DNA from: an uncultured bacterium
Lineage (GTDB): Bacteria; Muiribacteriota; Ozemobacteria; Ozemobacterales; Ozemobacteraceae
DNA length: 64,000 nucleotides
NCBI GenBank assembly: GCA_964389325.1
Contig: CAYMEN010000003.1
Span: forward strand, 62,502 to 126,501
Reading direction: 5' to 3'
Shown: positions 8,360 to 61,001 of the stretch, in pieces
How positions within the stretch are numbered: the stretch's first letter is position 1
How the letters are laid out: every line of letters starts with the position of its first letter
Made by a program: the position numbers and the translations under genes
The notes under the pieces: generated by a model
Database searches by the model: none
Told to the model about the DNA's origin: nothing
Seen by the model: the letters and a program-made list of their open reading frames with translations, nothing else

Positions 8360-9460
8360 CTAGTTGGCTCCGGGTTGGTGGTCCAGGAGGGTGGACAGCG
8401 GGTCGTCGGAAACGGCGGCCGGCGAGGCGGTTGCCGATGCCGGCTGGAGCGTCGGGGACGCCACGGTGGGCGCGGAAGCGGGCTGCGGGAATGCCGGTTG
8501 TTCGATGACCTCCGTCTGCGTCGCCGTTTCGGAGGCGACGGCGGCCGTGGCGGGATCGATCGTGCGTGGTGAGGGGAATCCCCAGGCCCGGATATCGGAT
8601 TCGGCGAGCGTTTCGAGAGAGACCAGTTCACCGCAGACTGCGCGGGTTCCGGGAGTGAGAATGACCGGCGGTTCCGAGGCGATGGCCAGGGTGAGGTTCC
8701 CTGCAAACAGATCGATACAGGTGGTGTTCGAAGCTATTCTGACGCCAAACGCCGCATTGTTGGCCTTAACCGAAGCGATTCCGGCGTTCAGGGTGCGGGC
8801 CCTGGCAGGCTGACCGGATTTGAAGTCGCACCTGGCCGCCCCGGCCTCGAGCCGGATTTGCTCGTTGTCGATCGTGAGCCTGGAGTCGGGGAGAAGGTCG
8901 ATCCGGCCGCTCGATGCGACCGAGAGGGCGAAGCGGCCGTCGATTCCGGTGGTGAAGCAGGTCGGCTCGGTGAAGAGGCCGTTCGTCAGGTTCGTCGAAG
9001 CGCTCCAGCGGCCATCCGCCAGGATCAGGCCGACAGGGTCCTCGAGTTTCCCGGCCAGCGTCGCCCGGCCCTGGACCGATGTCCGTGTGACTCCCGGCCC
9101 GTCGGAAACGGGGCGGGAAACCGAGAAAAACAGCAGCCCGGCGAGGGCGGCCGTGGCGAGAACCGACAGCCATCCGATGAACCGCCGACTGCCGCCGGCC
9201 TGTTCGGCCGTGTCGGGCTCCGCCTGGACGGGAACCGGAAGAGCCCGGACGGCGGCCATGATGCGCGGCGTGAGGTCGGGGCCTTCGCGGAGGCGCAGCC
9301 GCTTCAGATCGGCCTGGCCCCGGCGGGCTTCCTCGATCATCGCCCGACACGCGCCGCATTCGCCGAGATGGCGCTCGAAGGCGGCCAGCTCGCTGCCCTG
9401 CAGGGCACCGTCCAGATACTCGCAGCACGTTATTTCATCGAAATGGTTCATATCGTTCAT
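8360..9460 (-). CDS. anti-sigma factor (zf-HC2 type, single TM, periplasmic domain with P/A/T-rich C-terminal tail)
   Basis: N-terminal CCEYLDGAL...FERHLGECGACR zinc-finger anti-sigma motif; TM WLSVLATAALAGLLFF; located directly downstream of ECF sigma gene. Confidence 0.7.
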   Translation of the reverse strand: MNDMNHFDEITCCEYLDGALQGSELAAFERHLGECGACRAMIEEARRGQADLKRLRLREGPDLTPRIMAAVRALPVPVQAEPDTAEQAGGSRRFIGWLSVLATAALAGLLFFSVSRPVSDGPGVTRTSVQGRATLAGKLEDPVGLILADGRWSASTNLTNGLFTEPTCFTTGIDGRFALSVASSGRIDLLPDSRLTIDNEQIRLEAGAARCDFKSGQPARARTLNAGIASVKANNAAFGVRIASNTTCIDLFAGNLTLAIASEPPVILTPGTRAVCGELVSLETLAESDIRAWGFPSPRTIDPATAAVASETATQTEVIEQPAFPQPASAPTVASPTLQPASATASPAAVSDDPLSTLLDHQPGAN

Positions 9461-9513
9461 CCTGTCGTTCTTAACTTCCCCTGAAACGACCGACGGTTAC
9501 ATGAATCGAACAC

Positions 9514-10101
9514 TTATTTGCTCTCGCTCCCGAAAGCGGCGGGCAAATCCGCGGGGGCTTCCTTCTGCAGCGTCTGCCCGAGTATGCGCCGGGCACGGAA
9601 CAGCCGTATTTTCACGAGATGCTGGGGAATTTCGAGAATCTCGGATATCTGCTGGTACGACCGTTCGAAAAAGTAGAACAGCCAGACGACGAGCTTGAAA
9701 TCCTCGGGAAGCCGGGCCATCGCCGCCCCCACCGCCTCCTGACGCTCGCGCCGGAGCTGCTCGTCGAGCGGATCGCAGAAGATGGGAATCTCTGCGTCGG
9801 GAAGCGGGACGGGGGTCTTTTTCCGGAGAGCCTTGTAACAGTGGTTGGTGGCGATTTTCAGGATCCAGTTCGTGAAGGAGCGCGACTGGTCGAATCGTCC
9901 GAGGCTCTGATACGTCGCGATGAACACTTCCTGGACGACATCCTCGGCCGCCGCGGGCCGTCGCACGTGATACAGCGCCATCATGTAAATCTTGCTCTGG
10001 TATCGCTTCACGAGCTCGCCGAACGCTTCCACCCGGCCAGCGAGCACCTGTCTGACGATCTCGGCATCCTCGGGCGGATGAGCTCCGGGGTGGTCCGTCA
10101 T
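9514..10101 (-). CDS. ECF-family RNA polymerase sigma factor (sigma-70 regions 2 and 4)
   Basis: Region 2 motif VQEVFIATYQSLGRFD...FTNWILKIATN and region 4 helix-turn-helix (SYQQISEILEIP...VKIRLFRARRIL). ATG at 10101 forms an ATGA overlap with the upstream pseudopilin stop; alternative ATG at 10110. Confidence 0.85.
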   Translation of the reverse strand: MTDHPGAHPPEDAEIVRQVLAGRVEAFGELVKRYQSKIYMMALYHVRRPAAAEDVVQEVFIATYQSLGRFDQSRSFTNWILKIATNHCYKALRKKTPVPLPDAEIPIFCDPLDEQLRRERQEAVGAAMARLPEDFKLVVWLFYFFERSYQQISEILEIPQHLVKIRLFRARRILGQTLQKEAPADLPAAFGSESK

Positions 10102-10649
10102 GGTTCCCATCCGGGGATGAGACTGTTGCTGGCGTGGTTCGAGCAGTAGATGAACCGGTTCACCTCGAAGACTTCCGTTCCCTTGGGCGGCGTACCGATC
10201 TTGAGGTGAACGCGGAAGCCCATGCGGTTGTCCGGCAGGTCGACCCGGGTGAACTTCGTGTCGAGCACCATCAGCTCGCGACAGTAGACATATTCTTCAG
10301 GCGTCCCCGACGTGGGGATGTGCTTCCTGATGAGACCCCGGTTGGAGGGCGGGCGCTCGTAGATAATCGAGCTCTGGGACAGCCCGCTCCCGTCGCTTTC
10401 GAGAATCCCGATCTTGGCGGAGGGCTCTTCGGAGCCGGGTTGCATCGAGGAAAGATCGACGGCGCGCTGGACGTCGTCTTCGATCTGGGAAAGCAGGATC
10501 GCGGTCGACTGGACGTTCGTGAGGTGCGCGGCGCCCTTCGTCGAGGTTTCCATGCCCTTCGACAGCAGGCGGCTGAGCGCGTAGACGACGATCGACGCGA
10601 GCAGCACGCTGACGGCGATTTCCACGAGGGTGAAGGCGCGACGTTTCAT
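10098..10649 (-). CDS. prepilin-type N-terminal cleavage/methylation domain protein (minor pseudopilin-like)
   Basis: MKRRAFTLVEIAVSVLLASIVVYAL prepilin leader + hydrophobic helix. Confidence 0.6.
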   Translation of the reverse strand: MKRRAFTLVEIAVSVLLASIVVYALSRLLSKGMETSTKGAAHLTNVQSTAILLSQIEDDVQRAVDLSSMQPGSEEPSAKIGILESDGSGLSQSSIIYERPPSNRGLIRKHIPTSGTPEEYVYCRELMVLDTKFTRVDLPDNRMGFRVHLKIGTPPKGTEVFEVNRFIYCSNHASNSLIPGWEP

Positions 10650-10652
10650 GGT

Positions 10653-11081
10653 TCAGCGGTTCCTGTATGTCATGCAGCTCATCGAGATGCTGCGCTTGAC
10701 CTGCGCGGTTTTCCAGGCGACCTCGGCCACCAGGACCTTGTAGATGAACGGCACCGTCGCGGGAACGGACGGGGTGATGACCGAGAGCTTCCGCTCGAAC
10801 CGGTCGTCGGCTTTGAGAACGAAGGTGGAGCCGTCCGCCTGCGTCACCTCGAGAGCATTCGCGTCGCGCGTTCCCGCCGCGAGGAACGGCGCATCGAACG
10901 GCCTGGACTGGGCGTAATCGAGAAGCTCGGTCGCGTAGGTGTAGGCGAGCACCTCGTCCCGGGTCTGCTGGGTGCCTGCCGCGCCCCGGGAGAAAATGAA
11001 AAAGATGGGGGAGAGGCACGCCGCGACAACGAGAACGGCGATCATGACTTCGGTGATGGTGAAGGCGTGTTTCTTGTTCAT
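10653..11081 (-). CDS. prepilin-type N-terminal cleavage/methylation domain protein (minor pseudopilin-like)
   Basis: MNKKHAFTITEVMIAVLVVAACL; start ATGA-overlaps stop of upstream 709-aa gene. The long ORF 10653..12251 in the track is this gene fused in-frame to an antisense artefact. Confidence 0.6.
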   Translation of the reverse strand: MNKKHAFTITEVMIAVLVVAACLSPIFFIFSRGAAGTQQTRDEVLAYTYATELLDYAQSRPFDAPFLAAGTRDANALEVTQADGSTFVLKADDRFERKLSVITPSVPATVPFIYKVLVAEVAWKTAQVKRSISMSCMTYRNR

Positions 11082-13207
11082 TTCAGCTGCAGGGGCGTGG
11101 GGTTGAGCGTGAACGAGAGGAGGTCCTGTTCGGAGGTCTCGTCGGCGGTCTGCCCGGGAAGGGCGGCGAGGGGAAGGGCGTATTCGAGCTCGGCGCCCTG
11201 GGAGGCACTCGAGATGTCGAACCGTTTCATGGCGACGGCCCCCTTGATCTGCGGCCGGCCGTTGTCGGTCACGGTGACGCGCCCCTTCGGCGCGGTCAGG
11301 GCGGCCTGGACGGGGCCGTTGATGTCGAGGGTGATGTCGCCGTCGAGCGTGACGAGTTGGAGAACCTTGAAAGCGGAACCGACGGTGGCGTTGATCTTGT
11401 TCGAGATGACGATGTTGCCCTTTTCGAGCACGATGCCGCCGTTGCTCACCACGTCGAGATTCTGCGTGATAAGCATGTCCGTTGCCCCGGGCACGTACAC
11501 CCAGCCGTTGAGATCGAGCTTGTTGCCCTTGAGCAGGCCGCGGTCGCGGAGATTGTTCCAGATGTCCTGCGGGGCATTCCCGGCCGGAAGCGTCCAGCTG
11601 GTGCGCTTTCCCGGGACATGCATCGCGCTGATGAAGGGCGTGATGGATTTCAGGCTGTTCGCGCCGGTGAGGCTGTCGAAGGGCGCCGGAATCGCGTGCA
11701 TCTTTTCCACCGGCGGAAGCGGATCGGAATTCATGAGCGTGAGGAGCGGGCTCGTCTGGAGGCTGGGGAGCGGGAACGCCAGGTTGTTGTTGGTGACCAT
11801 GATGGCGATGGAAAGATTGTACGGGGTGTATGCGAGGTTGCTGGCGAAATCCTGGTTGAATTTCTTGAGCGATTCCCCCGAAGAGGGGTTGAAGTAGGTC
11901 ATGCGGAGGCTTGGGTCGATGAGAGTCGTGAACGTGGAGATATTGTCGTTCTCCGGCATCGGCATCGGCGACAGATACTCCTGCCAGTATGTCAGGTTGC
12001 TCGCATCGCCGGGGACGCAGTTCAGGAAATCGGGGGTGAACCGTTTCCGGAGATCCTTGATCGCTTTCGCGGTGATGTAGGAGCGATACACCTCGCCGAG
12101 AACGAGGGTGGGAGACTTTTTCGAATCGGTGCCGTACAGCCGGAAGATCGAGTTGAAGCGGGCGAGTGAAGCAAGTTTCGAGTTGGCGATGAACCCCCAC
12201 CATTCGCGTGCGCCCGACGAGGTCGTGTCGAAGGTGGTTCCCTGGTCCCATCCGAGGAGGGCGATTTCACCGGCCGGATCGAGCCATTTGAGCGTGTACA
12301 GCCCATCGCCCTTGCCGCTCTTGAACAGGTGGAAACCTTCGGCGTATTTTCCCGGGCTGGGCCAGCCGCGTGCGAGGTTGAGATACATCCTGCCGCCGCC
12401 GAGATAGATGAGGCCGCGCTTTCCCTGGACGAGGCTGTCGAAGGTGAGGCTGCTGAGCGAAAGCTGGTCGTCGCCGTTCCAGAGCACCCAGGGCGTGACC
12501 TGATACCCGGTCTGGAGATTGCCGGTGACGTCCGTTGCGGCGAGGTTGAACCGCCACGGGGAACGGGTCGGTGAGCCGTCCAGCGCATCCTCGACATACA
12601 GGGTGAACTTCGAGAGCACCGGGATGATGGCGGCCGTGACCTTGACGCGGAGGGCGTAGTGGTAGTCTTCCGGATACTCCGGACCGTTCGTTTTCTTGTA
12701 CCTGATCGTCACATACAGGTGGATGATGCCGGATTTCTCTCGCGGAAACTTCGAGGAAATCGCGGAAAAGTCGCCCGCCCGGCATTCATACCGGATCTCG
12801 TAATTGAAGGTTCCGTGAGCCGCCAGGGGCTTGATCAGCTCTTTGACGACGTTCGAGAGATCCGGATCGCCCGAGTCGAACGCGATGGGAGGGTTGGCGG
12901 TGCGCGAAAGGTCGCCCATGCCGCTCACAGGCTTGCGGAGGTAGGTGACGAGGGGGTGATCGGGCCTGAGAAGGATATCGTGCTGGATTTTCTGCGCCGC
13001 GAGGTGAGCGAGGGAATTGGCCAGCACGCCCGTGATGCGCTGCTGGGCCTGCTTGTGCCCCGCGCGATTCTGTCTCACCATATACTGGATGAAATATCCG
13101 CCGATGAGCAGAAGCGCGAACATGACGCCTCCCGCCAGGATCAGAACCGAACCGTTCCGGTTCGATGCCTGCCTTGGGGTGGGTGCGGGCCGGGGCGGAA
13201 GCGTCAT
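11078..13207 (-). CDS. large membrane-anchored hypothetical protein (709 aa), N-terminal TM without prepilin cleavage motif, beta-strand-rich C-terminal region; possible GspK/minor-pilin-complex-like component
   Basis: TM VLILAGGVMFALLLIGGYFIQYM near N-terminus; G/C third-position bias; translationally coupled to downstream pseudopilins. Confidence 0.5.
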   Translation of the reverse strand: MTLPPRPAPTPRQASNRNGSVLILAGGVMFALLLIGGYFIQYMVRQNRAGHKQAQQRITGVLANSLAHLAAQKIQHDILLRPDHPLVTYLRKPVSGMGDLSRTANPPIAFDSGDPDLSNVVKELIKPLAAHGTFNYEIRYECRAGDFSAISSKFPREKSGIIHLYVTIRYKKTNGPEYPEDYHYALRVKVTAAIIPVLSKFTLYVEDALDGSPTRSPWRFNLAATDVTGNLQTGYQVTPWVLWNGDDQLSLSSLTFDSLVQGKRGLIYLGGGRMYLNLARGWPSPGKYAEGFHLFKSGKGDGLYTLKWLDPAGEIALLGWDQGTTFDTTSSGAREWWGFIANSKLASLARFNSIFRLYGTDSKKSPTLVLGEVYRSYITAKAIKDLRKRFTPDFLNCVPGDASNLTYWQEYLSPMPMPENDNISTFTTLIDPSLRMTYFNPSSGESLKKFNQDFASNLAYTPYNLSIAIMVTNNNLAFPLPSLQTSPLLTLMNSDPLPPVEKMHAIPAPFDSLTGANSLKSITPFISAMHVPGKRTSWTLPAGNAPQDIWNNLRDRGLLKGNKLDLNGWVYVPGATDMLITQNLDVVSNGGIVLEKGNIVISNKINATVGSAFKVLQLVTLDGDITLDINGPVQAALTAPKGRVTVTDNGRPQIKGAVAMKRFDISSASQGAELEYALPLAALPGQTADETSEQDLLSFTLNPTPLQLK

Positions 13208-50657: not shown

Positions 50658-53513
50658 TCAGGCGTGTTTGCGGAAGTGCCGGAGCCAGGCGAGGAATTTT
50701 TCGGTCTGGGAGCCGATCAGTTCGGTCAGGAGAATCGCCTCGCGGTCCTGGTAGTTCTTGAGGGCGAACTCCGACAGCAGGTTGAGGCAGCCGGGGTCGC
50801 TGAACAGTTCGAGCAGGCGGTCGAAATGATGCCTGAACTCCTCGGCCTTTTTCTGCCGCTCCTCGGTCGAAAGGCTGGGACGACGCAGTTTGAGCCGCTC
50901 GAGGAGGGACAGCGGCTGGTTGAACAGCTGGGAGAGGCAGGTCGGGCCCCGGGGCTGGCGCGCCCAGATATACAGGATGTCGAGCATCGCGGTGAGCCGC
51001 ATGTCGCGATCGTGCGAACTCAGGCGCGGAAGCAGTTCGCTGAGGTCGCGCTTGCGGATGACGACGCGCTGTCTGTATTTCCCGAAGCCTTCGATGAAGC
51101 CGCCGACGACGTCCGACCAGAGTTTCGCCTGGACGATGCTCGGGATGCCGATCAGGTTCCCGATCGGCGCGAAGGCCGTCGCGAACGGCCAGGCGAGCAC
51201 CGTGCGGAAGAAGTTCGCCCGGATGACGCGTCGGTCGAAGTTGCGCAGCCTGTTGTGGGTGCTGATGTAGATCCCGTTCGCCATGCACAGGAAGAAAAAC
51301 TTGGCGGCCTCGAACAGGAAGCCCGCCTTTTCGAGCGGCCAGCTGTCGTCGAACGCGATCTTCACGAAGCCGAGGATCGGGACACTGAAACCGGTCCAGA
51401 ATAAAGACTGTGATATATTATCAAAGTTGACGTTGCGCAGGCTCCAGTTCCGGATGAGGATCCCGGAGCTGGCGAGCAGGTCGACCAGCATGTTCCGGGT
51501 GCCGGTGATCAGGAACCAGATCACGGCGAACATCACGCCGGCCAGCTGGCCGAACTGGTAGTTCATGAACGAGAACGCCACGATGAACCCGATGGCGATG
51601 CGCCAGAGGCTCTTGAGGCCGGGGTTCACATACGCCCAGAACTCGCCGGGCGGAACGAGGTCGAGCGCTTCCTCGTCTCCGACCAGGTTCCGGAAGGGCT
51701 TGCCGATTTTGCCCATGCAGACGACGTCCGACCCGCTGCCGATCGGCGCATCGGGGCTGTCGTCCTTCTTCCCGTCGTGGATGACGAGGTCGGCGATCGG
51801 CCGGGGGACCTTGTAGTGTGACTCGAGAAACTCGGGGCGCACCGACTCGGGAATGTCGCTGACCTTGATGAAACCCATTCCCGGGATCGTCGGGTCGCGG
51901 CCGGTCGAATCGCTGCCGCAGACCGGGATCAGCGGCCGGCGCGCGGTGAGTTCCCGGGCCTTTTGCACCTGCTGCCGGACGCCGCCCGTGATCCCGTGCT
52001 GTTCGAGGAAGTTCACGACGTCGTCCTCGGTGCCGTTGTTGAGCAGGTAGACGAACTTGTTGAAGATGATCAGGTCGTTCGGGTTGCGCGCCGAGCTGTC
52101 GCGCAGGTTCAGCGTCTCGATGTGCGAGATGCGGGCGATGTGCTTGAGCAGGTGCTGCATCGAGTCCTTGAGCCCGATCTCGAGGGGGTGGATCATGACG
52201 ATCCGGCCGCCCTGGCCGATCAGGGTGTCGAGTATCGGCTCCTCCTCGGCGAACTCGCTGTCGTAATCGACGACGTCCCGGCCCTCCATGTAGGAGGCCC
52301 GCAGGCTTTCCGGCGTCATCGTCTCGTACTGCTCGCGCACGGCCTCATACTGCGACGAGATGTTCTTGAACTCCCACTCGCTGTAGATGCCCCGCGTGAG
52401 GCGGTCTTCGGCGGCGAGCACCTGCGCCTTCAGCTGGAGGACGCGGCGCTGGAGGATGTCGCGGAACTTCTGGAACAGCAGTTCGCCGATATGGACTCTC
52501 GAAATCTGCCCGCACGCAACGATCCGGTCGAGCTCCTCGAGGGTGAGCGGCGGGAACCAGCAGGGGCTGTCGGGTTCCCAGCCGGAGTTGAGCCGTGGCC
52601 GCTGGAGCGTGTTGAACCGCTCGACGGCGGCGACCATCGTCTTGTGGCGGCTCGCCGCGTTCGTGCGGAGGCCGCTCAAAAACGGGGTGAAAATCATCCG
52701 GCGCTCGTCGAAAAACGCGAAAAACGCTTTGCTGTCGGCGGTTTCGGGCGGCACGTACATGTAGTGACGCCGGGCGCCGCTGTGGCCGACGCTGAACTCG
52801 ATACCGATGTTCACCTTGATGCCGAGAATGTTGCCGGCGGTGATCGCCTCATGGATCATCCGGCGCTCGTCGAGGTTCGAATACACGATGGTGAGCCGGG
52901 AAATGCCCTTCACGAAAGCGTCCAGCAGCACCTGCGTCGGGGTCTTGCGGCCTTCCGACAGGAAGTCGTGAACGTGGTCGTCCCAGCCCATGTTCAGCTC
53001 GCGGAGCGGCTTTTCCTCTTCGGGGACTTCGACCAGGTGGAGTTTGTTCAGGAACCGGCGGACGACCGCTTCCTGCCCGAACGAGACCAGGCCGAAGTCG
53101 GCCATGGCTTCCATCTGGCGCCGGCGGTTGCTGCGCGATTTGACGACTTCCTTCATCAGGTCGATCTGGATGCGCGCCGTGTTCAGCGGCATGTTGATCG
53201 TCTTCGCGTGGAGGGACTGGTCGACCATCATCGAGAGGGCGGCCAGCCGCTCCTCGGCGGAGTTCGGAGAAAGGTCACGCGCGATCTTGATGTAGGCGCC
53301 GGCGATGCTGAGACGCCGCTTGCCGAAATCGCGAACGAAGCCGCCGGGGTGGGAGAGGTGCCGGACGTTCAGCCGGGTCGGGGGTTCGTCGAGTTTGTGG
53401 TTGACGGCATCGACCAGCGACTCGATTTCGTTGTTGAAGCTCAGCCACTCGATCAGGCTGGACAGCAGACCGACAGCCGTGTCGTGGGATGTTTGCAGCA
53501 GCCAGCGGAGCAT
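50658..53513 (-). CDS. large hypothetical membrane protein (951 aa): about 600-aa soluble N-terminal region, then a multi-TM block, then a C-terminal soluble region
   Basis: Continuous ORF with coding GC3 bias; hydrophobic helices between about residue 600 and 800 (e.g. WRIAIGFIVAFSFMNYQFGQLAGVMFAVIWFLITG); no motif recognised. Confidence 0.5.
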   Translation of the reverse strand: MLRWLLQTSHDTAVGLLSSLIEWLSFNNEIESLVDAVNHKLDEPPTRLNVRHLSHPGGFVRDFGKRRLSIAGAYIKIARDLSPNSAEERLAALSMMVDQSLHAKTINMPLNTARIQIDLMKEVVKSRSNRRRQMEAMADFGLVSFGQEAVVRRFLNKLHLVEVPEEEKPLRELNMGWDDHVHDFLSEGRKTPTQVLLDAFVKGISRLTIVYSNLDERRMIHEAITAGNILGIKVNIGIEFSVGHSGARRHYMYVPPETADSKAFFAFFDERRMIFTPFLSGLRTNAASRHKTMVAAVERFNTLQRPRLNSGWEPDSPCWFPPLTLEELDRIVACGQISRVHIGELLFQKFRDILQRRVLQLKAQVLAAEDRLTRGIYSEWEFKNISSQYEAVREQYETMTPESLRASYMEGRDVVDYDSEFAEEEPILDTLIGQGGRIVMIHPLEIGLKDSMQHLLKHIARISHIETLNLRDSSARNPNDLIIFNKFVYLLNNGTEDDVVNFLEQHGITGGVRQQVQKARELTARRPLIPVCGSDSTGRDPTIPGMGFIKVSDIPESVRPEFLESHYKVPRPIADLVIHDGKKDDSPDAPIGSGSDVVCMGKIGKPFRNLVGDEEALDLVPPGEFWAYVNPGLKSLWRIAIGFIVAFSFMNYQFGQLAGVMFAVIWFLITGTRNMLVDLLASSGILIRNWSLRNVNFDNISQSLFWTGFSVPILGFVKIAFDDSWPLEKAGFLFEAAKFFFLCMANGIYISTHNRLRNFDRRVIRANFFRTVLAWPFATAFAPIGNLIGIPSIVQAKLWSDVVGGFIEGFGKYRQRVVIRKRDLSELLPRLSSHDRDMRLTAMLDILYIWARQPRGPTCLSQLFNQPLSLLERLKLRRPSLSTEERQKKAEEFRHHFDRLLELFSDPGCLNLLSEFALKNYQDREAILLTELIGSQTEKFLAWLRHFRKHA

Positions 53514-53711
53514 GTTCCGATCCAGATCCTTTCTCGATGCCGGCGTCAGCCGGATGCCGTGATCGTGCTGTTACGTCTTTTGCGTATAACACAAAAAGGG
53601 AAAACCCGCCCCACTCCCGACCCGATTTCCGAAGTCGGAGCGAACGCAACAGGGTTTCCCTCGGACCTCGTGATTATAACCTCGCGATCGGGATAATTCA
53701 ATCGGAAGGTG

Positions 53712-53720
53712 TGATATAAT
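53712..53720 (+). promoter_or_regulatory. extended -10 element TGaTATAAT upstream of glmM
   Basis: TG at 53712-53713 and TATAAT at 53715-53720, 33 nt upstream of the glmM ATG; no convincing -35. Confidence 0.35.
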
Positions 53721-53753: not shown

Positions 53754-55103
<1,350 letters not shown>

Positions 55104-55140
55104 CGGGGAAACGGTGCGGACGATGCAAGAGCCCGGTACG

Positions 55141-55731
55141 ATGAGACGTCTTTCGAGACGACTCGCCGTTCTCTTTGCCGCTGCTCTGTTGCTTGCTGCG
55201 GGGTGCAGCCGAAAATCGCAGGGTCCGGGCGTGAATGGCCCCGGGAAAAAAGGGGCGGAATCTGCCGCCCGGCCCGGCCAGGCTTCCGGCACGACCTCGC
55301 CGGCAGGCACAGGAAATGGCGCCATTTCATCGGGTGGCGCAGCCCTTCCGGATCGTGGCGAGATACAGAAGACATCCATGACTCCCGCCATCAGACGCGA
55401 GTTTGAGCGTCGGTATGAGAAAGGCATCGCGCTCCTCGAAAAGCAGGACTACGGCGAAGCCTCGCGCATTTTCGAGCAGCTTCTCTCCGAGAGCTCCGAT
55501 CCGCAGGACGCGAGCATTGCCGCCTACTGCCTCGCCGAGATCTGCTTCCGGAACAAGTCGAATGCACGGGCCCTCGAACTGTTCAAGGAAATCGTCGAGA
55601 AGTATCCCGGCACTCCGGCCGCCGACAACGCGAAGGCCGGGATCGAATACCTCGAGAATTTCCACAAGCACGAGGCAGAGTACGTTTCCCCGGACGTGGA
55701 GGATCGGAAGCGCCGGGGAGCGGGCCGGTGA
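55141..55731 (+). CDS. TPR-like lipoprotein (lipobox LAAGC), YbgF-like
   Basis: MRRLSRRLAVLFAAALLLAAGCS lipoprotein signal; Gly/Ser-rich linker; C-terminal TPR-like helices. Confidence 0.55.
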   Translation: MRRLSRRLAVLFAAALLLAAGCSRKSQGPGVNGPGKKGAESAARPGQASGTTSPAGTGNGAISSGGAALPDRGEIQKTSMTPAIRREFERRYEKGIALLEKQDYGEASRIFEQLLSESSDPQDASIAAYCLAEICFRNKSNARALELFKEIVEKYPGTPAADNAKAGIEYLENFHKHEAEYVSPDVEDRKRRGAGR

Positions 55732-55762: not shown

Positions 55763-56242
55763 ATGAAACAGGCGTTCGAACGGCGGCACGGCTTCTCGAT
55801 CATCGAGGTGCTCCTGGCGATGCTCATCATCGGGGCCGGCGTCGTGCCGGTGTTGTCGCTGTTTCTGACCGGTTCCCGCACCGTCGAGAAAGGCGGCCTG
55901 CTGCTGTCGGCCACCATCGCGGCCCAGAACGTTCTCGATCGCGCGAAGAGCGACGCGTTTCTCTGGGGCAACGTTCCGCTCACCCTCGATTTTCCCGACC
56001 CCGATCATCCGCAGTTCACGCTGCCCGCCTTTTTCGCGAAAAAATACAACGCCTCTGGAACCCTGATCATCGAGGAGGCTCCCGGACACACGGTCATCGG
56101 CACCGGTGAGAAGGAGACGAGCCTGGTCCAGATCAGCGTCATCATCCGCTGGATCGAAAACAAGACCGGGCGTTCGACCAGGCTCGTGACATACCGCGCG
56201 AACACGAACTGCTTCGACCTGAAAACATCCGCGAAATTCTGA
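55763..56242 (+). CDS. prepilin-type N-terminal cleavage/methylation domain protein (pseudopilin-like)
   Basis: RRHGFSIIEVLLAMLIIGAGVV prepilin leader/helix. Confidence 0.6.
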   Translation: MKQAFERRHGFSIIEVLLAMLIIGAGVVPVLSLFLTGSRTVEKGGLLLSATIAAQNVLDRAKSDAFLWGNVPLTLDFPDPDHPQFTLPAFFAKKYNASGTLIIEEAPGHTVIGTGEKETSLVQISVIIRWIENKTGRSTRLVTYRANTNCFDLKTSAKF

Positions 56243-56277
56243 TGAACCGCGAGGAGCACGTGAGGGACAACCCCGTG

Positions 56278-56895
56278 ATGACCCGACCGAGGAGCGGTTT
56301 TACGCTCGTCGAATTGTCTATATCTGCGGTTATTATATCGTTGATCGGCCTCGTTCTCGTGGCGGTCTTCCGCAGCAACCTCGCCACCTGGAAATGGGGC
56401 CAGGAGCACATGGAGTTCAACCAGAAGGTCCAGCTCGCCATGAAACAGGTGTTCACCGACATCAAGCGCATCAACCCCGTCGTCCTCACCGACACCCGGG
56501 GGAATCTCTGGTTCAAGGGAGAACGCATCGGTGACCTGTTCCCGAACGTCATCGAGGTCGTCGACACCGACAAACTACCGGAAAACGGAGGCGAGGAGTT
56601 GATCTTCCAGCACACGACCTACCGTCGGCCCGGCGAGAGGACACAGGTGCGGCTGTTTCTCGAGAAGGAGGCCCTCATGCGCGAGACGACGGACCAGAAC
56701 GGGTCCCGTTCCCGCGTCGTGATTTCCGACAGGGTCTCGAACCTGCATTTCCTCCGCAACACGGCTGATATCAACGAGATTTCCGTTACCATGACCATCG
56801 CGGACGACATGAATCCGAAACTCATCGAGGAGCTCGTCTTCGCCGTCCGTCTCGACACCGATCTCGTGTGCGTGAAAGCGAGGGACGGCTCATGA
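56278..56895 (+). CDS. prepilin-type N-terminal cleavage/methylation domain protein (pseudopilin-like)
   Basis: MTRPRSGFTLVELSISAVIISLIGLV; GAGGGA RBS before ATG 56278 (upstream in-frame ATG 56242 lacks RBS). Confidence 0.6.
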   Translation: MTRPRSGFTLVELSISAVIISLIGLVLVAVFRSNLATWKWGQEHMEFNQKVQLAMKQVFTDIKRINPVVLTDTRGNLWFKGERIGDLFPNVIEVVDTDKLPENGGEELIFQHTTYRRPGERTQVRLFLEKEALMRETTDQNGSRSRVVISDRVSNLHFLRNTADINEISVTMTIADDMNPKLIEELVFAVRLDTDLVCVKARDGS

Positions 56896-57386
56896 CCGGC
56901 AGGAGCGGTTCGAAGCGCGGGTTCATCGCGTTCTACTCGTTCATTCTTCTCCTCATCCTGGCCATTTTCGGCATCTCCTACTGGGCCGTTTCGCGCCTCT
57001 CGACCAGTTCCATCGTCCAGGAGGCCGGCCGCATCCGCGCGAGATGTCTCGCCCAGGCGGGCGTCGAGAAGGTGTTGATCAACATCGTCAACCAATACCG
57101 GCTGGGCAACCGCAATCTCGGGTATCCGGGCAAGTTCAGCCGCGACCGCACCGACAAGGAATACAACGTCGAGTTCGGGGACGGCTCGTACCGGGTCGAG
57201 TCGGTCCAGCCCTACACGGCGCCGGGCAGCAGCAAGGTCATGACGCAGGTGCCGTATTACCAGCGCCAGACGGTCATCGGGACCTACGACATCTGGAAGA
57301 TCGTCGTCGTCGGAGAAGTGCCGGAAGGCCCCCAGGCGCGGGTCGAGACGCTTGTCAAGATTATCAGGCAGTATGCCCGATACTGA
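56892..57386 (+). CDS. GspK-like / uncleaved pseudopilin-like membrane protein
   Basis: KRGFIAFYSFILLLILAIFGISYWAV N-terminal helix resembling GspK; ATGA overlap with upstream pseudopilin. Confidence 0.4.
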   Translation: MTGRSGSKRGFIAFYSFILLLILAIFGISYWAVSRLSTSSIVQEAGRIRARCLAQAGVEKVLINIVNQYRLGNRNLGYPGKFSRDRTDKEYNVEFGDGSYRVESVQPYTAPGSSKVMTQVPYYQRQTVIGTYDIWKIVVVGEVPEGPQARVETLVKIIRQYARY

Positions 57387-57411
57387 GGGACGGAGCCGTG
57401 GGAGGAAATAT

Positions 57412-58725
57412 ATGATAAAGTATACAAATACGGCATGGGGACTCGCTCGCGCCGCGCTTCTCGGAGGAATCCTGCTCGTTTCCGCCGCCGACGCCCGGGC
57501 GGCCAATGACGGCCCGCAGTTCGACGGGTTTTCCGCCAAGGTGTCGGGTGATATCTACGGCCAGCCCCGGGTCATCGAGGACATGGACGGGGACGGGAAA
57601 CAGGACCTGATCTTCGGCGCCACGGACGGCAAGGTACATGTCTACTCGTCGACCGGCAAGGAGATCATCCGGCCGCCGAACTGGCCGAAACAGACGGGAG
57701 CGCCGATCCTTTCCGACGTGTCGGTCGCCGACCTCGACAACGACGGGAGCTCCGAGGTCATCGTCAGCTCCCTGAACGGGAAGGTTTACTGCATGGACCG
57801 CCGGGGCGTCCAGAAATGGGAAGTGAACACCCGCGGCACGATCCGTCTCTCGTCCCCCGAGGTCGCCGACGTCGACGGGGCGGGCAACATGTCCGTCTTC
57901 ATCGGATCGAAAGCGGGCACCGTGAGCCGGATCGACAAGGACGGGCGGCTGATCTGGGAGGTCCCGATGTCGACCTCCGTCTCGTCGCGCGTCGTCGCTG
58001 CCGACATCAACGGCGACGGCACCAAGGAGCTCGTCGCCAAGGACGACAACGGGAAGGTGACGATCCTGAACATGCGCGGCTCTGTGGAGAGCGGCTGGCC
58101 CCAGTCGACGGTCCCGAACCTGACCTGGCCCTTCGAAGTCGGTGCCGGCGACGTCAACGGCGACGGCGTCAAGGAGATCTTCACGACGACGCCTGAAAAA
58201 AAGTTTTTACTATGGAACAGGGACGGCAGCCTCCGGACGCAGTTCGGCCTTTCCGACGCGTCGCATTCGGCCCCTCGTCTTGCGGACCTGAACGGGGACG
58301 GCCGCGACGAGTTCGTCATCGGCCAGGCGGACGGGGTGGTGATGGTCTGCGATCGTGATGGCAAGCCGCTCCCGGGATGGCCCTTCAAGACGAGGCATTC
58401 GGTCTATCACACGCCGCAGGTGATCGACGTCGACGGCGATGGCCGGCTCGACGTGGTGTTCACGGCCTGGAACCCCGAAGGCGTCGGCAAACAGGCGGGC
58501 TACGTGATGGCGCTGAGCCGCGACGGGAGCCCGCTTCACGGATACCCGAAATACATCGGGAAATCCATCGCCCCGCTGACGTTTGCCGATCTCGACGACG
58601 ACGGGTATCTCGAGATGATCGCCGCGGGCGGCATCAACTACACCGACGACCAGCTCCACGTCTTCCCGACCGGCGCCCGCGTCCAGATACGGCTGGCGAT
58701 TCTCGGCAGCGAGGTGTCGTTCTGA
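57412..58725 (+). CDS. secreted FG-GAP/integrin-alpha-like beta-propeller protein with repeated D-x-D/N-G-D-G calcium-binding loops
   Basis: Signal peptide; eight D.DGDG-type loops (DMDGDGKQD, DLDNDGSSE, DVDGAGNMS, DINGDGTKE, DVNGDGVKE, DLNGDGRDE, DVDGDGRLD, DLDDDGYLE) at about 45-55-aa intervals; GGAGG RBS. Confidence 0.65.
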   Translation: MIKYTNTAWGLARAALLGGILLVSAADARAANDGPQFDGFSAKVSGDIYGQPRVIEDMDGDGKQDLIFGATDGKVHVYSSTGKEIIRPPNWPKQTGAPILSDVSVADLDNDGSSEVIVSSLNGKVYCMDRRGVQKWEVNTRGTIRLSSPEVADVDGAGNMSVFIGSKAGTVSRIDKDGRLIWEVPMSTSVSSRVVAADINGDGTKELVAKDDNGKVTILNMRGSVESGWPQSTVPNLTWPFEVGAGDVNGDGVKEIFTTTPEKKFLLWNRDGSLRTQFGLSDASHSAPRLADLNGDGRDEFVIGQADGVVMVCDRDGKPLPGWPFKTRHSVYHTPQVIDVDGDGRLDVVFTAWNPEGVGKQAGYVMALSRDGSPLHGYPKYIGKSIAPLTFADLDDDGYLEMIAAGGINYTDDQLHVFPTGARVQIRLAILGSEVSF

Positions 58726-60083
58726 TGCGGTTCGCCCTCTTCCCGGCGTGGCACAGGGCTTTTCTGGCAGCCATCTGCGCGATTTCGATATGCGCCGGGG
58801 GCGCATGCGCGCAGGAGGATGACGACCTCCGCGAGTTCCTGACCAGGGGGCAGGTCTGCTACCAGAAACGCGACCTGGCGGGGGCCGCGCTCGAATTCGA
58901 AAACGTCCTGCTCATCGATCCGTCGAACGTCGAGGCGTCGATCTGGCTGGCCCAGATCTACGCCGATCAGAAGAACATGTTCAAAGCCCGGCAGATGCTC
59001 CAGCAGGCGAAGCGGATCATGCCGACGCATGCCCGCGTGGTCGCCCTCGAAAACCTCTTTGGCGACGGCAAGCCCCGGGTCACGACGAAGGAGACCGATC
59101 TCGTGATGCACGAGACGCTGACCCTGCTCGGCTCGGGAACGAACCTGCGGCCGTACGGCCTCGTCGTGCCCGAACAGAAAGTCCGTGCCGCCGGTGTCCA
59201 GTCCTCGACGATAGCTGCGTTCGAGGACGTGGAGATCGCGATCGAGCCCTCCCTTGGAACGGGGCCGACGAGCGTTCCGGCCGGTATCGATGCGTTCGCG
59301 AAGGAGGAGGGGCCGCTCGCCCCGGTGTTCGAGGCGCGGACGGTCCAGGGCCTCGCGAAAGCTCTCGACGCCTATTTCGAGATCGTCGGGAAAGACAAGA
59401 CCCTCGTGGAACAGGATGACAAGGGATTGCTCAACGAGGGGATCACCTTCTACGAACCAAAACTCCGCGCGAATGCCAGCGACACCGAGGCCGTCTTCTA
59501 TTACGGCATGATCCAGTTCTACAACGGTGCGGTCGAAGAAGCGTTCAAACTCCTCGAACCTCTGCGTGAAAGCGAAACGCCCTACGGTGACCGGCTTCAG
59601 GTCGTCTGGAACGAGATCGACAAACGCAGGCGCGAGGAAGAAGCCCGTCGCGAAGCCCTCAGACGCGAGGAAGAAGCCCGCGAAGCTGCGCGTATCGCCG
59701 CTGCCGAACAGGCCGCCGCCGCCTCCGCCGCGATAGCCGCCGCCGCCGGAAGCGCGCCCACCGGTTCCGTCGCCTCCGCCTCGAGCCCGGCCGACGCCCT
59801 GCATACCGAAGGCTACGAACTGTACAAGAAGGGCCAGGTCGACGCCGCGATCGAAAAGTTCAACACCGCCATCAGTCGCAATCCGAACGAGCCGAATTAC
59901 CATTACCACCTCGGCCTCGCTCTCACCGACAAGGGGCTCGGGGGCCAGTATGACGCCTTCGACCGGGCGATCGAGGCGTTCAACCGCGTTCTGCGTCTCG
60001 CCCCGCCCGGCGAAAAACTCGCGAAAGACGCCGAAGCCATGGTCCGCGACATCACCGCCGCCAAAAACACCCTCAAACGCTGA
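58725..60083 (+). CDS. secreted TPR-repeat protein with central Arg/Glu-rich charged helix and Ala-rich linker
   Basis: Signal peptide; TPR-like helices at both ends; REEEARREALRREEEAREAARIAAAEQAAAASAAIAAAAG segment; TGATG overlap with upstream gene. Confidence 0.55.
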   Translation: MRFALFPAWHRAFLAAICAISICAGGACAQEDDDLREFLTRGQVCYQKRDLAGAALEFENVLLIDPSNVEASIWLAQIYADQKNMFKARQMLQQAKRIMPTHARVVALENLFGDGKPRVTTKETDLVMHETLTLLGSGTNLRPYGLVVPEQKVRAAGVQSSTIAAFEDVEIAIEPSLGTGPTSVPAGIDAFAKEEGPLAPVFEARTVQGLAKALDAYFEIVGKDKTLVEQDDKGLLNEGITFYEPKLRANASDTEAVFYYGMIQFYNGAVEEAFKLLEPLRESETPYGDRLQVVWNEIDKRRREEEARREALRREEEAREAARIAAAEQAAAASAAIAAAAGSAPTGSVASASSPADALHTEGYELYKKGQVDAAIEKFNTAISRNPNEPNYHYHLGLALTDKGLGGQYDAFDRAIEAFNRVLRLAPPGEKLAKDAEAMVRDITAAKNTLKR

Positions 60084-60098
60084 TCTCCACGGAACCTG

Positions 60099-60175
60099 CA
60101 ACGCACCACAGGCACGGAGACGCAGAGAAAGAAATTCTGTTCGAACTCTGTGTCTCTGTGCCTGGTGGTGCGTTG
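60099..60175. repeat. intergenic repeat element copy B: about 29-bp imperfect inverted-repeat arms with 18-nt loop (probable terminator hairpin for the 55.8-60.1 kb operon), sharing 17-mer and 13-mer with copy A
   Basis: Arms CAACGCACCACAGGCACGGAGACGCAGAG / CTCTGTGTCTCTGTGCCTGGTGGTGCGTTG; shared k-mers with 36700-36772. Confidence 0.55.
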
Positions 60176-60257
60176 TATCATTCAACGGCCAAAAAGATCG
60201 GTTGCGGGCGGGGAATTGTGATATACTTCCCGCGTTTGCGACAAGGAGAGAGTCGAG

Positions 60258-61001
60258 ATGGGTGTGACGACGAAACACAACCGCGGCCAGGAACTTTCCC
60301 CCGACCTCGATGTCGGTGAGAACGGCGTTGCCGTCGAAGTGCCGGTGACCCGCCCCTTCGAAGGGTACACCTATATCCGCAAGGAGTGGGTCGATCAGGA
60401 AGACGGGATCGAGAAGGTCACCTTCAACATGACGCTCGGGCCGGTCAATCTTCCCGCCGACTGGAGCCGCACCCAGACATTCGTCATGATGCCGGAATGG
60501 GGCACGTCCCCCCTCCGCCGCACCTGGATCGTGCGACTGCCGACGCATCTCGAAGGGCATGATCAGTATCTCTTTCACTATTTTTTCCAAACCTACTATG
60601 CGAACGGCGAGGAACGCGTCAGCAGCATGTTCGCCCAGTTGATCCAGCCGCATGAGATCGAGTATATCGATTACGGCGGCGACCTGGTCAACGTACGGCT
60701 CCATTGGAGCGTCGGCGACTGGTCCTATGCGCAGGATACCGAGCTCGAGGCCGACGGCATCGAGTGGGGAAGCGAATTTTCCGTCAGCAGTGCGCCCTAC
60801 CGCGCCAAAGACCGTCTGTATCAGAACGGCCGCATTCTCGTGATGCGCCGCCTGCCTTTCCCACGAAGGTTTCACGGCCTGATCTGGGCCCCGAAGGGCG
60901 CCGAGGTCCGTTTCTGCTTCCAACTCGTGCGACACCGTCCCGACGGCCAGGATCTGCTGTGGGACAACAATTTCGGCAAAAATTACTCTCTGACCATCTA
61001 A
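60258..61001 (+). CDS. hypothetical protein with CBM20/21-like (starch/glycogen-binding-type) C-terminal motif
   Basis: C-terminal LLWDNNFGKNYSLTI resembles the conserved WDNN.G.NY end of CBM21/CBM20 domains; AAGGAGAG RBS. Confidence 0.4.
   Translation: MGVTTKHNRGQELSPDLDVGENGVAVEVPVTRPFEGYTYIRKEWVDQEDGIEKVTFNMTLGPVNLPADWSRTQTFVMMPEWGTSPLRRTWIVRLPTHLEGHDQYLFHYFFQTYYANGEERVSSMFAQLIQPHEIEYIDYGGDLVNVRLHWSVGDWSYAQDTELEADGIEWGSEFSVSSAPYRAKDRLYQNGRILVMRRLPFPRRFHGLIWAPKGAEVRFCFQLVRHRPDGQDLLWDNNFGKNYSLTI

Follow-up and report, generated by a model that had tools for sequence, protein, structure and literature searches.

We analysed a 64-kb window (the whole stretch of 64,000 nucleotides, to which coordinates refer unless a related locus is named) from an uncultured member of Candidatus Riflebacteria, family Ozemobacteraceae, and concentrated on a run of co-directional genes that combines pilin-like proteins with a secreted beta-propeller. 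Five genes, here called A to E, occupy 55763–60083 on the + strand, each where the first-pass annotation had placed it. A (55763–56242, 159 amino acids [aa]) and B (56242–56895; 217 aa from 56242 or 205 aa from 56278) encode pilin-like proteins, A with a GspI/PilV-like N-terminus. C (56892–57386, 164 aa) encodes a protein with a predicted pilin fold, D (57412–58725, 437 aa) a Sec-exported, eight-bladed beta-propeller of the FG-GAP/VCBS type, and E (58725–60083, 452 aa) a secreted tetratricopeptide repeat (TPR) protein. The packing is as tight as had been described: the 56242 start of B overlaps the stop of A (TGATG, 56240–56244), B and C overlap by an ATGA (56892–56895), D and E by a TGATG (58723–58727), and a GGGAGG Shine-Dalgarno sequence lies 6 nt 5′ of the ATG of D.

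The unit had been taken to begin with A at 55763, but two more genes on the + strand belong to it. Directly 5′ of A is sTPR (55114–55731, with its likely ATG at 55141), which encodes a small TPR lipoprotein with the lipobox LAAGC, and before that lies glmM (53754–55103), encoding phosphoglucosamine mutase; glmM homologues in related loci carry the PGM_PMM_I–IV domains. An extended −10-like motif, TGTGATATAAT, is found at 53710–53720 (+ strand), 34 nt 5′ of the glmM start, and a second copy, TGTGATATACT, at 60217–60227 (+ strand), 31 nt 5′ of the next gene (60258). The pattern TGTGNTATAMT (TGTGATATA[AC]T) occurs twice in the window, against an expectation of 0.02, and the two copies bracket exactly glmM through E. 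Most relatives have TGnTATA[AC]T 33–50 nt 5′ of glmM and equivalent −10-like motifs 23–52 nt 3′ of the E stop. Judged by its match to the consensus, the motif may be a lineage-typical extended −10 promoter; we propose the first copy as the promoter of the whole unit and the second as a mark of its downstream boundary. Consensus matches and spacing together suggest that glmM to E is apparently a single transcription unit, with glmM as its first gene.

The first-pass annotation had recognised two prepilin-leader proteins, and A and B both exceeded the cut-offs of two general models, Pfam N_methyl (23.2 and 23.7 bits, respectively; cut-off 21.2) and TIGR02532 (20.6 and 17.2; cut-off 16.3). Their predicted class III signal peptides place them in the type IV pilin/pseudopilin superfamily. 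Models of individual minor-pilin families were more restrictive: A scored 31.5 against PilV TIGR02523, under the cut-off of 52.2, and was also under cut-off for GspI TIGR01707 and XpsI, as were all matches to the PilV, GspI, XpsI, ComGD and Verru_Chthon cassette C models. These family matches span the N-terminal 50–60 residues only, and when profiles of A, B and C were compared with PDB sequences they matched the N-terminal pilin helix and nothing beyond it. The motif [GA][FV][ST]x[IV]E of A, which includes Glu5, is kept in 22 of 23 orthologues, and B has Gly/Ala at −1 together with Glu5 in 24 of the 24 orthologues with an intact N-terminus (the L014 protein, whose N-terminus is cut by a contig end, was left out of the count). 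Retention of Glu5 and of the cleavage site points to selection on both processing and assembly. All three pilin-like families, A, B and C, are lineage-restricted.

C gave no Pfam or NCBIfam match at E ≤ 0.1, T2SSK included. Its AlphaFold model (predicted local distance difference test [pLDDT] 84) combines a 64-residue N-terminal helix with a beta-sheet, as in pilins, and its best structural match is GspK. Gly at −1, Phe at +1 and a hydrophobic helix are present and Glu5 is absent; across Riflebacteria orthologues the Gly-Phe is kept, and in 24 of 25 a hydrophobic residue replaces Glu5. C had been called GspK-like and uncleaved. A likeness to GspK is suggested by the structural match and the missing Glu5; the second part is unsupported because Gly-Phe is conserved at the cleavage position. 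On the evidence of its N-terminus, C is probably cleaved but lacks Glu5, like GspK, which makes it a candidate cap subunit. It is nonetheless outside the GspK family, having neither the T2SSK domain nor the large alpha-domain (about 300 aa or more) by which that family is recognised. A profile search of 1.84 billion proteins returned 28 relatives of C, 26 of them 51–205 aa long; the other two, of 366 and 500 aa, were weak N-terminal matches.

The signal peptide of D (Sec) ends in ARA-AN and has no lipobox. D matched FG-GAP_3 at 128.3 bits (cut-off 26.9) in seven stretches and FG-GAP at 77.4 bits (cut-off 22.1). Structure prediction, proposed in the first-pass annotation as a check, yielded an eight-bladed propeller with a pLDDT of 91.9 from a 50-sequence alignment. 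The best PDB matches in Foldseek were likewise eight-bladed (the designed Cake8, BamB, YxaL and Vibrio Bap1), with ITFG2 and BBS-type propellers ranking after them; the sequence profile of D agreed, and also reached integrin alpha-V weakly. Eight calcium-type loops, D-x-[DN]-x-[DA]-G-x-x-[DES], lie at residues 57, 107, 153, 198, 247, 292, 339 and 393, spaced by 45–54 residues, and six of the eight are strongly conserved among 50 orthologues. The earlier description of a secreted propeller with eight such loops is therefore upheld, except that the strict form, DxDGDG, is found in some of the loops only. By these matches D falls in the FG-GAP/VCBS beta-propeller superfamily, and its loops predict calcium binding. 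An exact-sequence look-up of D gave no record, and homologues were taken instead; the orthologue group comprises approximately 83 clusters, all of about 430 aa and 38–94% identical, past which scores fall sharply to those of generic FG-GAP proteins. The window's assignment to Candidatus Riflebacteria, family Ozemobacteraceae, follows from the organisms named as sources of these homologues.

Two better-known propellers had to be separated from D. No match to the Pfam PilY1/PilC family (Neisseria_PilC) was found at E ≤ 0.1, and PilY1 was not among the best 50 Foldseek matches or the best 60 listed PDB sequence matches. By these comparisons, with FG-GAP blades in place of a PilC domain, D is not a PilY1 relative, in agreement with the different family assigned to it earlier. 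The Pfam PQQ_2 model (BamB family) was matched at 31.9 bits against a cut-off of 27.6, far below the FG-GAP_3 score, and there was no NCBIfam BamB match. With no lipobox and no curated match, D is not BamB, and the similarity is one of fold.

The flanking TPR proteins are of different kinds. sTPR matched Pfam TPR_16 at 37.5 bits and, marginally, YfiO (27.0 against a cut-off of 25); its best PDB sequence matches were the TPR domain of CpoB/YbgF (3.6e-13) and BamD (2.6e-7), each spanning one TPR block only. Both curated models stayed well under cut-off, BamD TIGR03302 at 30 against 81.4 and YbgF TIGR02795 at 37.9 against 90.1. The G-C of the lipobox is kept in five of six aligned orthologues. 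E, previously described as a secreted TPR protein, does carry a signal peptide, the A-Q junction of which is conserved, and matches TPR_11, TPR_2, TPR_16 and TPR_19; its TPR blocks are N-terminal and C-terminal, with an Arg/Glu/Ala-rich linker between them.

We compared six metagenome and 80 genome loci, each scanned with a profile of every module protein. The order sTPR-A-B-C-D was found in 18 of 18 distinct genome loci with full flanks (Riflebacteria-type), sTPR being directly 5′ of A in every one, and two cut contigs still show B-C-D. The same synteny extends to metagenome loci, down to 41–45% identity in D. D is 3′ of C in every locus, and in four more distant loci, one of them named Wallbacteria, C-D occurs alone, without A and B. 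Most loci have E right after D; L004 lacks it, and in L018 it lies 7 kb off. L004 apart, all Riflebacteria-type loci with sufficient flank have glmM directly 5′ of the module, an adjacency that persists where genes downstream are rearranged. From this distribution we infer that the seven-gene operon glmM-sTPR-A-B-C-D-E belongs to the Riflebacteria core genome.

Might D and E simply be unrelated secreted proteins beside one of many scattered pilin-like clusters? Machinery-free pilin-like modules do exist elsewhere: the window holds two more (305–1141, and 10098–13207 on the − strand), others occur in relatives, including L088 and L089, and none of these adjoins assembly genes. The first-pass annotation had anticipated such clusters, and several were found, but their similarity to A-C is confined to the N-terminal helix. 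Order and overlaps of the A-E module, moreover, hold over approximately 25 species-level genomes, to about 41% D identity, and among 53 unrelated control FG-GAP loci from other phyla none had an open reading frame with a prepilin motif within 10 kb. The synteny data thus strongly disfavour chance neighbourhood, which we consider very improbable, and bear out the earlier proposal that pilin-like genes and propeller form a functional unit. Recent duplication of the 10098–13207 module as the origin of A-E was ruled out, as the two share N-terminal helix similarity only.

Our favoured interpretation, tentative and held with slightly less than even confidence, is that A, B and C make up a cap complex of the minor-pilin type, that D is the non-pilin partner of this complex, and that the machine is encoded elsewhere. 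Minor pilins and a non-pilin partner set binding and the start of growth in type IV filaments. By analogy, class III signal sequences would take A, B and C into the inner membrane, and a prepilin peptidase would cleave each of them behind the conserved Gly/Ala. The processed subunits would form a small cap or priming complex, comparable to GspI-J-K of the type II secretion system (T2SS) or PilV-W-X of type IVa pili, with C presumably at the top, since Glu5 is missing from it as it is from GspK, the top subunit. Sec-exported D would dock on C, in the place of PilY1 though unrelated to it, and sTPR and E might serve as periplasmic or outer-membrane scaffolds. Any extension of a fibre would need a motor ATPase, platform, secretin and major subunit from elsewhere. 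We prefer the cap complex because C-D adjacency is strict over two phyla, Glu5 and the cleavage sites are kept, and the gene order is I-J-K-like.

The closest parallel is the complex of PilY1 with minor pilins, which in Myxococcus is a priming and tip complex (PMC7541494). As in the type IVa system (FimU/PilV/PilW/PilX and PilY1), pilin genes are followed here by a gene for a Sec-exported non-pilin propeller with calcium motifs, so that D, like PilY1, is encoded right after minor-pilin-like genes. The systems differ in several respects. D has eight FG-GAP blades, whereas the propeller of PilY1 is seven-bladed; D is small and has no variable N-terminal domain; the PilY1 system has four or five pilin-like genes against three here; and the module is not beside pil genes. 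Our literature searches gave no paper that connects minor pilins to FG-GAP propellers. Bdellovibrio Bd0109 was considered as a possible pili-linked FG-GAP protein, a lead that was dropped when the paper proved not to contain that term.

The T2SS tip offers a second parallel. The usual order of gsp genes in T2SS operons is I, J, K, and A-B-C runs I-like, J-like, K-like. Taken with the likeness of C to GspK and the Sec signal peptides on D and E, this order would also suit a T2SS-like export module, in which an A-B-C pseudopilus tip would push D, and possibly E, through a secretin. D would then be cargo, a secreted lectin or matrix protein of the calcium-dependent kind seen in Vibrio Bap1/RbmC, and its profile does match the Bap1 matrix propeller (6mlt; 1e-11 by sequence, 6.3e-12 by Foldseek). 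Bacterial eight-bladed FG-GAP/VCBS propellers, and the VCBS superfamily (PMC8023676), are thus further comparators, and D resembles Vibrio cholerae Bap1/RbmC in its repeat family, in having eight blades and in its calcium-type loops. However, Bap1 and RbmC are multidomain matrix adhesins unlinked to pilin genes, whereas D is a bare propeller beside a pilin-fold gene, and its conservation is unusually high for a secreted matrix protein. Cargo rarely stays beside one pseudopilin over phylum-level divergence, as D does beside C. C itself has 164 aa and no large alpha-domain, unlike GspK; the module adds a propeller and TPR proteins to what a T2SS tip contains; no gspC-H or gspL-M genes lie near it, and GspD, GspE, GspF, GspG and GspH were not seen nearby in any genome examined. 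Export of D by such a module therefore appears quite unlikely.

Several observations also weigh against the cap complex. Among the window genes scanned there is no ATPase, platform or secretin, as the first-pass annotation had remarked, and no prepilin peptidase or obvious major pilin either; the same machinery and a major pilin were not seen within about 10 kb of the module in approximately 30 related loci, and a scan of about 600 kb of surrounding sequence from Riflebacteria-type loci gave no Walker A motif of the PilB type. The earlier suggestion of an adhesive or secretion fibre accordingly finds no support in these loci. Pilin-like genes number only three, none reaching the cut-off of a specific minor-pilin family, and PDB sequence profile searches detected no relatives of the globular domains of A and B. 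D is highly conserved: over 20 complete loci, mean identity to the window protein was 61% for D, compared with 72% for GlmM, 57% for A, 53% for B, 50% for C, 47% for E and 46% for sTPR, so D is strongly constrained over its whole length. It is also single-copy, its housekeeping position is fixed, and glmM is apparently transcribed together with it; such features are commoner in housekeeping envelope components than in adhesins. The lack of machinery close by, the apparent co-transcription with glmM, the core-genome position and the conservation of D all counsel caution about the cap complex, and the last three fit a housekeeping envelope role at least as well as that of an adhesin.

Such a role is the main alternative, and a serious one: a periplasmic envelope complex in which pilin-like stalks or a stub would hold D and the TPR proteins, with no extracellular fibre. 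It would serve the upkeep of the cell envelope, through peptidoglycan/outer-membrane coordination or the handling of outer-membrane proteins, and be co-regulated with GlmM. We rate this as somewhat unlikely, although much of the evidence suits it. The inferred operon opens with glmM and has conserved boundaries, the locus is core-genome and single-copy, D is conserved nearly as well as GlmM, no assembly machinery was seen nearby, and C-D occurs without A and B in Wallbacteria-type genomes. The fold of D matches BamB and YxaL, among others, with PQQ_2 over its cut-off, and sTPR recalls CpoB/YbgF and BamD with YfiO just over cut-off, which lends this reading a little more weight. Set against this, A and B strictly keep Glu5 and the Gly/Ala site, which are needed for filaments and unneeded for a simple anchor. 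D is no lipoprotein and has FG-GAP calcium loops, which BamB lacks; the TPR domains of BamD and CpoB(YbgF) resemble that of sTPR, but sTPR is under cut-off in both curated models, and TPR and eight-blade similarities are generic. The BamB, BamD and CpoB systems include no pilin-like genes, and we know of no precedent for pilins in a housekeeping envelope role.

A bolder form of this idea, which we think doubtful, is that the operon serves no pilus or secretion machine and specifies a self-contained envelope structure defining the Riflebacteria/Wallbacteria: a short, pilin-built periplasmic stalk bearing a calcium propeller, held by TPR proteins and coexpressed with GlmM. Riflebacteria and Wallbacteria are outer-membrane-bearing relatives of Gram-positive lineages, and such a structure, if real, would tie the supply of amino-sugar precursors to how the wall or outer membrane is organised. 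Were the broader envelope role correct, A, B and C would be the first pilin-fold proteins in housekeeping envelope biology. For the cap complex that we favour, the significance lies in the partner protein. To our knowledge, PilY1 has to date been essentially the only non-pilin partner, a few special cases aside. Pairing a GspK-like cap pilin with an FG-GAP calcium propeller of eight blades would amount to a second solution, independent of the first, and the C-D pairing is conserved throughout a candidate phylum as well as in its sister group. The per-genome density of unknown gene families in Riflebacteria is the highest reported (PMC10849945). A, B and C belong to such lineage-restricted families, so the operon gives some of them a testable role.

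The two other pilin-like modules of the window have distinctive neighbours. The one on the − strand (8360–13207) includes two proteins with prepilin motifs and one of 709 aa whose N-terminus is hydrophobic, and adjoins genes for an extracytoplasmic function (ECF) sigma factor (9514–10110) and a zf-HC2 anti-sigma factor (8360–9460); in L088 a FecR-like gene neighbours another pilin pair. These arrangements hint at sigma/anti-sigma control of such pilin-like modules. At the window edge, 305–1141 is a third gene with a prepilin motif (278 aa). Its counterpart in a relative comes at the end of a co-directional run of five genes, all without Pfam matches (L089, 1171–5674), and the genes around the counterparts in relatives were all unannotated, with no assembly machine among them.

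Upstream of glmM, a gene on the − strand (50658–53513) encodes a 951-aa protein with no Pfam match and a weak PHP-like match at its N-terminus. Its position, in the gap between V-type ATPase genes and glmM, is kept in many Riflebacteria loci. In the Wallbacteria-type loci, the place of sTPR-A-B just before C-D is taken by a gene for a secreted protein with an HxHxDH-like motif (L029, 8403–9323; L031, 8585–9349; L032, 8358–9275; L033, 4468–5313), which by eye looks like a metallo-beta-lactamase fold. One contig labelled Candidatus Avigastranaerophilus (L027, JAZRWI010000060.1) carries the full module in a layout near-identical to that of L006. Either the bin is mislabelled, perhaps, or some gut lineage that is not among the named Riflebacteria has the module.

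Downstream of E, a long hairpin with 31-nt arms occupies 60097–60177. It had been thought to close the module. The hairpin is real and very stable, at −66.2 kcal/mol as + strand RNA (z = −8.8 against shuffled sequences) and −59.5 kcal/mol as − strand RNA, the + strand folding slightly better because several of its pairs are G-U on that strand. A conserved module terminator was, however, ruled out, since the hairpin is absent from every relative compared; in the close relative L009 the E stop is joined directly to sequence corresponding to window position ~60184. By this comparison the hairpin is a lineage-specific insertion of approximately 100 bp, probably a local terminator or an inserted palindromic element. 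A repeat family of the window was excluded, as the hairpin is single-copy there. An Rfam scan of the hairpin found no family at gathering score, and a relaxed scan of 59900–60400 gave only a sub-threshold chance match (24.7 against 70 bits). A 21-nt piece of one arm, CACAGGCACGGAGACGCAGAG (60107–60127), is found exactly in four unrelated metagenome contigs (L090–L093), where no second inverted copy or transposase was seen at the matches; in L093 the match (1230–1250) comes with a similar hairpin.

The junction after E also varies between relatives. Near-identical modules in L002 and L003 are followed directly after E by different CRISPR-Cas systems (L002, 12793–21317; L003, 12961–18871), type I-F (Cas1, Cas2-3, Csy1-4) in one contig of the pair and type II-A (Cas9, Cas1, Csn2) in the other. 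The junction thus seems to be a variable insertion spot, the one at which the hairpin of the window was inserted.

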